Numbered from the stretch's first letter, positions 44,589 through 50,676 are shown. The stretch is DNA of 64,000 nucleotides from Escherichia coli (GCF_003019035.1 NZ_CP027447.1); one strand, 5' to 3'. A program made the numbers and translations. Notes: generated by a model not told the origin, from the sequence alone.

Positions 44589-45479
44589 TTAATACTCGAG
44601 AATGCCGTGCGCGACGGGCAAATAGCGCAGAGAGAAATAGAGCGTGTCTTTACCGCAAGAGGAACGTTTCGCTAACAGCGAGGCAATTTCTGCGTCCGGT
44701 TTCGGTTTCGCTGTAAAGGTTTTGCCTTTGCCGGCGACAAACAGTTCATAAACAATGCCGCTTGCTGGGGCGGAGCTTTGGCAATCGGCGCTGGCCTGTA
44801 GATAACGTTCACGCTGTTCAGCGGTCAGTTTATCCACGCCGCTGCCATCCTGTACCCAGACATTAACGCCGGTTGCTTTAACGTGTTCCAGCAGTTGGCG
44901 ATAGCCATCGGGCGACATGTTTCCGGCGAAAAAACTACTGATATAAACCGGTTTTGCTGAAACATCGCTAATCAACCGCTGCGCGTTGTTTAACCATGTT
45001 AGCAAAGGCTGACGGGCGGCTTCGCTGCGCCAGTTCAGGTCGTCAATTTCCGCGCTGATGTACCAGCCATCCGGCGTTACGCCAGGTACGGCGCTCCATA
45101 ATCTGGCTTGCTGGAGATCGGCAGCCAGCAGGCGGTTAAGATAGCTTTCCAGCGCTGCAGACGACTGTTTCTGGTGCATAAAAAATTCCGGATCGGCATT
45201 CAGCCCGACAATCAGCTTCAGGCCAGCCTGTTGCGCAGCTGCGGCACGCTTAAACAATAACGCGTGCTGTTCTGGCTGGGTGAATGCATCGCCGTAACGA
45301 GTCCATTGCAAAACCAGGGTATCGAAGCCTTGCAAACGTAACTGACTCATCAGCCCCTGCCACTGGGTATCGGTAACCTGACTATCACGGTTTTGTGGTT
45401 GCCAGATAATACCTTTCATCGCAAAGGAAAAAGGGCTGACCAAAAGCAGTGTCAGCAATACGAAAATGAACTTACGCAT
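44589..45479 (-). CDS. ybcH: YbcH (periplasmic protein, third gene of nfrB-nfrA-ybcH)
   Basis: 296-aa ORF with signal peptide, immediately downstream of nfrA. Confidence 0.8.
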   Translation of the reverse strand: MRKFIFVLLTLLLVSPFSFAMKGIIWQPQNRDSQVTDTQWQGLMSQLRLQGFDTLVLQWTRYGDAFTQPEQHALLFKRAAAAQQAGLKLIVGLNADPEFFMHQKQSSAALESYLNRLLAADLQQARLWSAVPGVTPDGWYISAEIDDLNWRSEAARQPLLTWLNNAQRLISDVSAKPVYISSFFAGNMSPDGYRQLLEHVKATGVNVWVQDGSGVDKLTAEQRERYLQASADCQSSAPASGIVYELFVAGKGKTFTAKPKPDAEIASLLAKRSSCGKDTLYFSLRYLPVAHGILEY

Positions 45480-48452: not shown

Positions 48453-50676
48453 TTTCGGACTCCAGTTGCGCAACCTTTTCTGTGTTTAAACCTGCTTTGA
48501 GTAATAGTGATTGCATCGAAACTTGTAATTCGCGTTGAATTGTCAGAACGCGATCCAACGTTTCCTGGCTGATAACGCCTTCGGTGACCAAAAACTTGCC
48601 GAGCGGCAGAGAACTGCGTTCATGGCGCAATAACAACACGTTAATTGCTGAACGATTAATATGACCGAGCGTGGTCAGTATTTCGGCGAACAGGAACTGA
48701 TGCGGCACATATTGCCGCCAGATTTCACCGGCCTGCTGTTCCGTGAGCCACTGATGCTGAACCGCATTGTACAACATTGCCCGCGGATCGTGACCGCGTC
48801 GGCGCGCATACCAGTGGCGTAACCCCGTGACAATTTGTCCCCGCAGAACAATGACGTAACGCACTTTGCGTCCGACTTTACGCGTCAGGGCCGCCAGCGA
48901 AACCGGGTCAATACCATCTTCACTGCCGACAATTAACTCATCATTTTCCAGACGCAGCGGCAGCACTGCATAATGCAGCGCCACGGAGGCCGGCATCTCG
49001 GCAATCAGTGATGAAGGGATCTGCCAGGCGTCGATCGACTCCCACGCCACGCCGTTTTGCTCTGCCAGCGCCTGTGCCAGCTGCTCGGCGCTAATCAGCC
49101 CCTGCATCAGCATTGAACCGCCAAGGCGTAGACCTTCGACGCGATTACGCAGTGCTGTATCGAGTTGTTCTTCAGTGATGACCTGATTTTCCAGCAGAAT
49201 TTGACCTAACGGGCGCAACGAGCGGGTATCGCCAGTCACGCTGGGGAAGTCATGCGTTGTTTTATCCCACGCCACGCGACGTGGATCGCCGTGTTGAAGT
49301 ACCTGTTTTAACGCGCGCCAGTTGGCCATGAAGTTAATCAGGTTGCCCCAGAAAAGACGCAGGACAGATAGTAGCCCCTGCGTCAGGCCGTAGTAGCCAG
49401 TGACGAAAATCACCCGCTGCACGATGCGGTTAACCATCAAGCCAAAGTTTAGCCACAGCAGGGTCATTAACCATGCGCTGCCGCTGAAAATAGAAAGGAA
49501 ATGCCAGGCATCGGGCCACAAACTTTCATACGCCAGTAACAGCAAAAGCTGGATCATCACCAGCATCGCGAGGAAGCTGACAAAGTTACTGATTGCCCCT
49601 TTGCGGTCGCGCCAGAGAAAGTAGTTCAGCGTCAGGCTGGAGGTCCATTTGTGGGTTTTAAAGCCCTGGAAAACAATGCCGATGATCCAGCGAGATTTTT
49701 GTCGAACCGCCGTCGAAAAGGTATCGGGGAAATATTCGCGCACGCAGATCATGTTTGACGTCCGCGCGTGCTGTAAAAATTTACGCTGCTCGCGTTCTTT
49801 GGCTTCGTCCACCACCGGAAAACGGACAAAAATTTCCGTCATACCTTTTTCTTTCAGGCGGAAACCAATGTCGTAATCTTCAGTAAGACTCTGCACGTCG
49901 AAAGCAATACCGTCACCGTCAGCTAACAGTGCGGTCACGGCGCGGCGGCTGAAACAAGTACCGACACCTGCGCTGGGCACCTGTCCGGCGAGGGCTTCAC
50001 GCACCGGAACATCTTTGCCATGCAGTTCTGAAAACTCATCAATGTAAGTCATGCTGGTGAAGTGCGTCCATTCGCGTTCGAATGGGTATACCGGGATCTG
50101 AATCAGATCTTTACGCTCGACCAGATAGTTGAACAGACGCAATTCCATCGGTGAAATTACGTCTTCGGCGTCATGCAGAATAAAACCAGCAAAAGCGAAA
50201 TTGGCGCTACGCTCAAACTGGGTGATGGCGTCCAGCACGTTGTTCAGGCAGTCGGCTTTGCTGGTGGGGCCAGGACGCGCGCAGACTACCTTATGCACGT
50301 TTGGGAAGCGAGCGCACACTTCGTCAACATCACGCTGAGTATCGGGGTCGTTGGGGTAGGTGCCAACAAAGATATGATAGTTTTCATAGTCGAGCGTGGT
50401 CGCCGCCAGCTCGGCCATATTGCCGATGACGCCCGTTTCATTCCACGCCGGAACCATAATCGCTAACGGTTTTTCATCTGGTTTATACAGTTCGCGGTAA
50501 CTCATTCGCGGGTAGCGGCGATAAACACTCAACTTGCGTTTAATGCGGCGTACCCAGTAGACGACATCAATAAAAAAATCGTCCAGCCCGCTGATGAACA
50601 TGATGACCGCTAACGTTATCGCGATTACTTTTAAGCCATATAGCCAGGTTGCAAAAACATCAAGAAGCCAGTCCAC
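48439..50676 (-). CDS. nfrB: Inner-membrane family-2 glycosyltransferase NfrB (phage N4 adsorption protein B)
   Basis: 745-aa ORF with N-terminal TM segments and glycosyltransferase domain; overlaps nfrA start. Confidence 0.85.
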   Translation of the reverse strand: MDWLLDVFATWLYGLKVIAITLAVIMFISGLDDFFIDVVYWVRRIKRKLSVYRRYPRMSYRELYKPDEKPLAIMVPAWNETGVIGNMAELAATTLDYENYHIFVGTYPNDPDTQRDVDEVCARFPNVHKVVCARPGPTSKADCLNNVLDAITQFERSANFAFAGFILHDAEDVISPMELRLFNYLVERKDLIQIPVYPFEREWTHFTSMTYIDEFSELHGKDVPVREALAGQVPSAGVGTCFSRRAVTALLADGDGIAFDVQSLTEDYDIGFRLKEKGMTEIFVRFPVVDEAKEREQRKFLQHARTSNMICVREYFPDTFSTAVRQKSRWIIGIVFQGFKTHKWTSSLTLNYFLWRDRKGAISNFVSFLAMLVMIQLLLLLAYESLWPDAWHFLSIFSGSAWLMTLLWLNFGLMVNRIVQRVIFVTGYYGLTQGLLSVLRLFWGNLINFMANWRALKQVLQHGDPRRVAWDKTTHDFPSVTGDTRSLRPLGQILLENQVITEEQLDTALRNRVEGLRLGGSMLMQGLISAEQLAQALAEQNGVAWESIDAWQIPSSLIAEMPASVALHYAVLPLRLENDELIVGSEDGIDPVSLAALTRKVGRKVRYVIVLRGQIVTGLRHWYARRRGHDPRAMLYNAVQHQWLTEQQAGEIWRQYVPHQFLFAEILTTLGHINRSAINVLLLRHERSSLPLGKFLVTEGVISQETLDRVLTIQRELQVSMQSLLLKAGLNTEKVAQLESENEGE

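Follow-up and report, generated by a model that had tools for sequence, protein, structure and literature searches.

An nfrB-nfrA-ybcH operon of Escherichia coli beside a composite Rhs element, with the upstream stretch shared with K-12 retained

The DNA analysed here, a 64,000-nucleotide stretch of an Escherichia coli genome (GCF_003019035.1 NZ_CP027447.1; hereafter "the window"), carries at positions 44589-50676 the standard, intact nfrB-nfrA-ybcH operon of the species, with a composite Rhs element lying upstream of it. We consider it quite probable that this element has left the native promoter stretch of the operon in place and its regulation unchanged, where both the place of the promoter and the unchanged regulation are what we infer from comparison with K-12. 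The operon, its function, and the neighbouring Rhs position are already known, and the arrangement is an ordinary one. The three genes of the operon were delimited as follows:

44589..45479, minus strand: ybcH, encoding a DUF4434 protein, an auxiliary component of the Nfr system (open reading frame, K-12 comparison, and Pfam)
45480..48452, minus strand: nfrA, encoding an outer-membrane TPR / NfrA_C protein (start as in the annotation of an identical genome)
48439..50676, minus strand: nfrB, with a GTG start, encoding a c-di-GMP-activated GT2 glycosyltransferase with an MshEN domain

These genes are co-directional in the order nfrB-nfrA-ybcH, and the region is real gene content rather than a chance pattern: open reading frames, identity to K-12, and Pfam matches all bear out the gene names and coordinates given in an earlier note on this DNA. 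In protein alignments with K-12 MG1655, the three products were 98-99.9% identical, with 744 of 745 residues matching in NfrB (the single change being Q734K), 981 of 990 (99%) in NfrA, and 290 of 296 (98%) in YbcH. Both an N-terminal family-2 glycosyltransferase domain (Glyco_trans_2_3, E 2e-40) and a C-terminal MshEN domain (E 4e-14) were found in NfrB, and residues D169, T265-E266-D267, Q326..W330, L490, and G491 were the same as in K-12, the positions of the DxD, TED, and QxxRW motifs and of the c-di-GMP-binding MshEN residues being taken from PMC8669469. NfrA matched NfrA_C (E 1e-67) and TPR (TPR_19) families, and YbcH matched DUF4434 (E 5e-69). The functions that the earlier note had assigned to NfrB (glycosyltransferase) and NfrA (outer-membrane TPR protein) are right. 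The nfrB and nfrA genes overlap by 14 nt in window coordinates, and a 14-nt overlap has been published for K-12 too (PMC8669469). According to the literature, NfrB is an inner-membrane protein, NfrA an outer-membrane TPR/beta-barrel protein, and YbcH a periplasmic auxiliary protein, and together they build and export a ManNAc-based surface glycan that is the receptor of phage N4 (Junkermeier & Hengge 2021, PMC8669469; Sellner et al. 2021, PMC8669472).

In K-12, nfrB directly follows cusS, with a spacer of 149 nt between them. The corresponding region of the window comprises two segments and, beyond them, an insertion sequence (IS):

50677..50818, minus strand: nfrB upstream stretch common with K-12 (142 of the 149 spacer nt; DNA alignment)
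50819..50863, minus strand: island-side segment of 45 nt, bordered by the shared stretch on one side and by the IS end on the other
50864..52154, minus strand: ISAs1-family element (H-rpt/ISEc1-like), 1291 bp, its ends set by alignment with copies elsewhere

The suggestion in the earlier note that upstream regulatory sequence differs from K-12 is not supported by this alignment, in which 142 of 149 nt are kept with five substitutions (at -50, -79, -92, -95, and -138) and no indels, and in which the non-shared part of the K-12 spacer is only the 7 nt adjoining the cusS stop codon. The substitutions look like ordinary allelic divergence, since the first 100 coding nt of nfrB carry three substitutions relative to K-12. 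The upstream region is thus essentially conserved up to the insertion, although the conserved stretch stops 45 nt short of the IS end rather than at a clean IS boundary. Homology ends at window position 50818 (position 10321 of locus L002), and this breakpoint recurs in every arrangement sampled at the locus, namely in K-12 and its derivatives, Nissle 1917, other strains with the K-12-type junction, B2 strains, E24377A, O157:H7, ATCC 8739, and WP8-S18. One of the sampled strains carries a different PAAR/HNH toxin island at the same breakpoint. As the nfrB-proximal upstream region survives the island, the sequence itself gives no ground for expecting N4 receptor expression to be altered here.

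The 45-nt segment is found in other island-bearing strains as well, most of which carry 71 nt more there; their IS junction is accordingly 71 nt farther from nfrB than that of the window. The exact IS/flank junction of the window, searched for with a 60-nt probe, occurs in only 88 of 5426 genomes. Given the extra 71 nt elsewhere and the small number of genomes sharing the junction, this lineage carries either a minor deletion next to the IS or an IS that has shifted, a change wholly within island-side DNA.

Where the promoter of nfrB might lie was addressed by scanning the region for consensus sites. At the standard threshold, a sigma-70 consensus scan upstream of nfrB found no promoter in either K-12 or the window, and a relaxed scan gave the weak candidates CTGTCA-17-TAATAT, whose -10 hexamer ends 43 nt upstream of the nfrB GTG, and TCGGCA-17-AAAAAT. 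Both lie inside the shared 142 nt, and they are the sole sigma-70-like candidates that this relaxed scan placed close to nfrB. On this view, a weak promoter of the operon's own, inside the shared 142 nt, would drive it here and in K-12 alike, and production of the N4 receptor would not be meaningfully rewired by the neighbouring element.

The relaxed scan also bears on a different reading, in which the junction itself creates an outward or hybrid promoter from a TTGACA hexamer at 50842-50847, just outside the IS end, and so adds to nfrB transcription. The scan does yield TTGACA-15-CATTCT here, with 9 of 12 matches, and the hexamer is kept in other island-bearing strains; however, the spacer is just 15 nt, the -10 hexamer is poor (3/6), the site is absent from the standard scan output, and promoter-like sites in the region are no more numerous than in shuffled sequence. 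We therefore regard such a promoter as extremely unlikely, and return to a native promoter within the shared stretch as the preferred reading.

Published work describes the expression of nfrBA-ybcH as low, with a post-exponential peak and higher levels at 37 than at 28 °C, as dependent on FlhDC and FliA, and as negatively controlled by RpoS (Junkermeier & Hengge, PMC8669469). Because the operon is reported as FliA-activated, the nfrB strand was searched for a sigma-28 promoter (TAAAGTTT-N11-GCCGATAA, up to 3 mismatches), which gave no match in K-12 or the window. The main text of a FliA ChIP-seq study mentions neither nfrB nor cusS, and the effect of FliA on the nfr operon is probably indirect. 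A genomic SELEX peak for RNAP-sigma32 lies in the K-12 nfrB-cusS spacer, with a value of 3.2 that is barely above the cut-off of 3.0 (Shimada et al. 2017, PMC5493296, Table 3). As for experimental start sites of nfrB, neither that gene nor cusS is listed in the Romero 2014 supplement, and a search of the literature yielded nothing of use. The published nfrB::lacZ fusion spans -1499 to 0, that is, nearly all of cusS (Table S1; PMC8669469), and it does not localise the promoter because this span includes most of that gene. Elements inside cusS could contribute to nfrB expression, and if there are any, they would sit 10.5 kb away in the window strain.

Going upstream from nfrB on the same strand, the window contains the transposase gene, an Rhs fragment, a 129-aa open reading frame, a PAAR-Rhs gene, a DcrB-family gene, vgrG, an AT-rich spacer, cusS, and cusR. 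The genes between the IS and the spacer were assigned as follows:

52155..52834, minus strand: orphan fragment of an Rhs core end and toxin tip, truncated by the IS (partial RHS protein in the annotation of an identical genome; weak Pfam RHS match; the open reading frame enters the IS end)
52864..53253, minus strand: 129-aa open reading frame, putative immunity protein, by its position directly after the Rhs toxin gene
53250..58103, minus strand: PAAR-Rhs effector of 1617 aa with a C-terminal Ntox30 toxin domain (Pfam RHS_repeat, PAAR_motif, DUF6531, Ntox30, prePAAR)
58123..58584, minus strand: DcrB-family protein, likely an effector chaperone (Pfam DcrB, E 1e-27)
58612..60513, minus strand: vgrG, encoding a T6SS spike protein (Pfam Phage_GPD, Gp5_trimer_C, Phage_base_V)

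All parts of a T6SS VgrG-Rhs island are therefore present, namely vgrG, an adaptor/chaperone gene, a PAAR-Rhs gene with a variable toxin, a downstream open reading frame (putative immunity gene), and an orphan tip. The 129-aa open reading frame, which overlaps the rhs stop by 4 nt, had no Pfam family match. Open reading frame order and Pfam matches agree with the earlier note in that an ISAs1 element and a T6SS effector island adjoin the operon. What the note calls two mobile insertions is better seen as a single composite Rhs element that includes an H-rpt/ISAs1 component, at a catalogued Rhs position and in nearly half of E. coli genomes. This composite Rhs element, roughly 10.5 kb long, fills the cusS-nfrB slot, which is a long-known and highly polymorphic Rhs position: Jackson et al. 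(2009, BMC Genomics, PMC2935791, Table 3) count 11 conserved Rhs positions in E. coli, with nfrB/cusS as position 4, and describe displaced C-terminal Rhs tips as well. A literature search found no paper combining nfrB, rhs, and vgrG.

The IS of the composite element has a single transposase gene (50874-52010, minus strand, 378 aa; Pfam DDE_Tnp_1_assoc and DDE_Tnp_1), which starts 197 nt upstream of the nfrB start codon. Its terminal inverted repeats, CAGGGAAAGATCACG and CAGGGAAAGATTACG, are 15 nt long with one mismatch, and size, single DDE open reading frame, and short inverted repeats fit the criteria of the ISAs1 family (about 1.2-1.3 kb). H-rpt/ISEc1 elements are members of this family tied to the Rhs elements of K-12, such as yhhI in RhsB, ydcC, and ybfD/ybfL, and a place at the downstream end of an Rhs element, as this IS has, is the classical H-rpt association. 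A repeat search had proposed a 36-nt inverted repeat (50853-50888 / 52130-52165) as the IS ends, and this was rejected as other copies of the IS place the ends at 50864 and 52154; the flanks of the IS carry an extra 11 nt of complementarity beyond these true ends. The upstream flank is the truncated Rhs tip. A target-site duplication, the mark of a simple local insertion, was not found, the flanks ...GGGGGATTACA and CGTTACCCTCC... not being direct repeats; its absence would fit a deletion or recombination event that later affected one of the flanks. The E24377A copy of the element is likewise without a target-site duplication.

At the other end of the island, the sequence around cusS bears on the direction of change between the two arrangements, and three features were delimited there:

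60557..60572, minus strand: 16-nt relic of the last codons of K-12 cusS (TTATCACATTATCCGC; 15/16 match), 44 nt upstream of the vgrG ATG
60573..61249, minus strand: AT-rich spacer between the present cusS stop and the relic (about 33% G+C over 60500-60999)
61250..62698, minus strand: cusS with a replaced 3' end, its homology with K-12 stopping at 61275

The C-terminus of CusS in the window (...VIMLPERE*) is different from, but related to, that in K-12 (...RFVITLPA*), and about 680 nt of spacer follow the gene. When the last codons of K-12 cusS, TTATCACATTACCCGC, were searched for, they recurred once, at window positions 60557-60572, with 0.00 matches expected in shuffled sequence. This K-12-like cusS 3' relic upstream of vgrG suggests that the island state is derived, and that it may have arisen from a K-12-like ancestor through at least two events at the 3' end of cusS. 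The possibility that the 16-mer is a generic leader motif of vgrG genes was rejected, as this leader occurs once per genome and at no other locus. Of the K-12 arrangement, the element replaces just the final few cusS codons together with the 7 nt past the stop, and it leaves the 142 nt next to nfrB untouched.

The distribution of the two arrangements was assessed in a set of 5426 complete E. coli genomes. Of these, 5425 matched a 12-kb query taken around the operon, several at 100% identity, and at least 80% of the query was covered in 2039. An ISAs1-family element lay beside nfrB in 2466 of the 5426 genomes, the single-copy vgrG leader of the island was present in 2617, and the K-12-type cusS-nfrB junction was found in 2326. 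The island arrangement is thus present in nearly half of sequenced E. coli.

Even with the proximal stretch kept, transcription could reach nfrB from further upstream. No intrinsic terminator was predicted from cusS to nfrB in K-12, from the transposase gene to nfrB in the window, or in the 71 nt by which the junction of most strains exceeds that of the window (taken from the longer E24377A junction). With neither arrangement predicted to have a terminator ahead of nfrB, the read-through input could differ between them, and upstream context might influence expression of the phage receptor. The island might accordingly alter nfr transcription through read-through or distal elements, in which case part of the K-12 transcription would come from cusRS read-through or from promoters inside cusS, and this input would be lost in the window strain and replaced by read-through from the co-oriented H-rpt transposase gene and the Rhs genes. 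We judge this improbable. The genes from cusR to ybcH are all on the same strand, the terminator predictions for this strand show no candidate site upstream of nfrB in K-12 or in the window, the RNA fold is without a hairpin followed by a U-tract, and the published reporter includes 1.35 kb of cusS; yet there is no direct sign of any read-through, and the reporter, placed at att-lambda, is active without the cusRS promoter (PMC8669469). Moreover, Rho-dependent termination after the cusS or the transposase stop is plausible and not predictable by the terminator tools used, and the presence of each arrangement in about half of E. coli argues against a strong fitness-relevant difference.

A stronger form of this idea, which we regard as more doubtful still, holds that the upstream transcription feeding the N4-receptor glycan operon differs between the two common arrangements, the K-12 type being copper/silver-responsive via cusRS read-through and the island type receiving H-rpt/Rhs read-through. 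If that were true, susceptibility to N4-like and other NGR-dependent phages would differ systematically between two halves of the species, and the rare, 71-nt-shorter junction of the window lineage would be a further variant.

Compared with known systems, the operon of the window resembles nfrBA-ybcH of K-12 in having the same three genes, order, 14-nt overlap, and domains, with 142 of 149 upstream nt in common, and differs in the five substitutions within these 142 nt. The neighbourhood diverges on both sides: the upstream neighbour of nfrB is cusS in K-12 and the H-rpt/Rhs island in the window, and on the far side of the operon the window lacks the ompT, appY, and DLP12 prophage of K-12, its envY being followed by a tRNA-Arg gene and fimZ. 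The island itself is like the described Rhs position 4 (PMC2935791) in slot and orientation, in its contiguous vgrG, and in a displaced C-terminal tip as expected from the C-terminal displacement model, whereas its Ntox30 tip and an H-rpt that lies 71 nt nearer nfrB than in most strains set the window copy apart. Similarly, the IS matches the Rhs-associated H-rpt/ISEc1 of K-12 in its length of 1291 bp, its 378-aa DDE_Tnp_1 transposase, and its location at the downstream end of an Rhs element. It also has the same terminal sequences (CAGGGAAAGAT...) as the H-rpt/ISEc1 copies at yhhI (RhsB) and RhsC, but its transposase open reading frame is intact; internal stops interrupt the frame in the copies inspected at yhhI and in HS RhsC.

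The cusS end of the island has these features in the window:

60557-60572: near-copy (15 of 16 nt) of the codons that end K-12 cusS, 44 nt upstream of vgrG
60573-61249: spacer of about 680 nt with about 33% G+C, between the present cusS stop and the cusS-end copy

The C-terminus of the present cusS differs from the K-12 version, yet is related to it. Taken together, the relict cusS end upstream of vgrG, the AT-rich gap and the altered C-terminus suggest a derived island state of the cusS-nfrB slot, with two nested events at the 3' end of cusS. Within the island lies a 129-aa ORF (52864-53253) that matches no Pfam family and shares 4 nt with the stop end of the Rhs-Ntox30 gene; it is presumed from its position to encode the cognate immunity protein.

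At the nfrB side, the stretch that separates the IS from the shared junction (positions 50819-50863 in the window) is 71 nt longer in most strains with ISAs1 beside nfrB (e.g., 12204-12330 of the E24377A locus); the contiguous junction of the window was found in only 88 of 5426 complete genomes. The window's ISAs1 element has no target-site duplication, and its immediate flanks show inverted complementarity over about 11 nt beyond the IS ends. The same nfrB-side junction borders another toxin island that occupies the slot in WP8-S18-ESBL-07 (1666-11637 of its locus), comprising an HNH/EndoVII toxin, WD40-like repeat proteins, a PAAR-like protein, a SUKH-3 immunity-like protein and two ISAs1 copies. 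With different cargo at an identical junction, the slot acts as a hot spot for polymorphic-toxin cassettes in general.

Downstream of ybcH, positions 41114-44406 of the window contain:

43645-44406: envY
43524-43600: tRNA-Arg(tct)
42650-43309: fimZ, followed by the sfm fimbrial genes

The end of the K-12 DLP12 prophage with ompT and appY is missing here, and it is present in the genome of CFSAN061771, which is otherwise identical.

A 921-aa protein of E. coli LR-46 annotated as 'NrfB' (NZ_AP027537.1; 4188-6953 of the locus) joins VgrG residues 1-216 in frame to NfrB residues 40-745; a deletion took out the entire island, the nfrB upstream region and nfrB codons 1-39, and an IS3 element separates cusS from the vgrG leader. 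In E24377A, nfrB (12472-14708 of the locus) is a pseudogene with a frameshift and an internal stop. Among the genomes sampled, the nfrB 5' region had no match in strain HS and a few others, and in Nico21(DE3), a BL21 derivative, the K-12 junction probe matched at its cusS half only. Given the E24377A pseudogene, these non-matches and the half-match, the N4 receptor system seems to be lost recurrently in nature.
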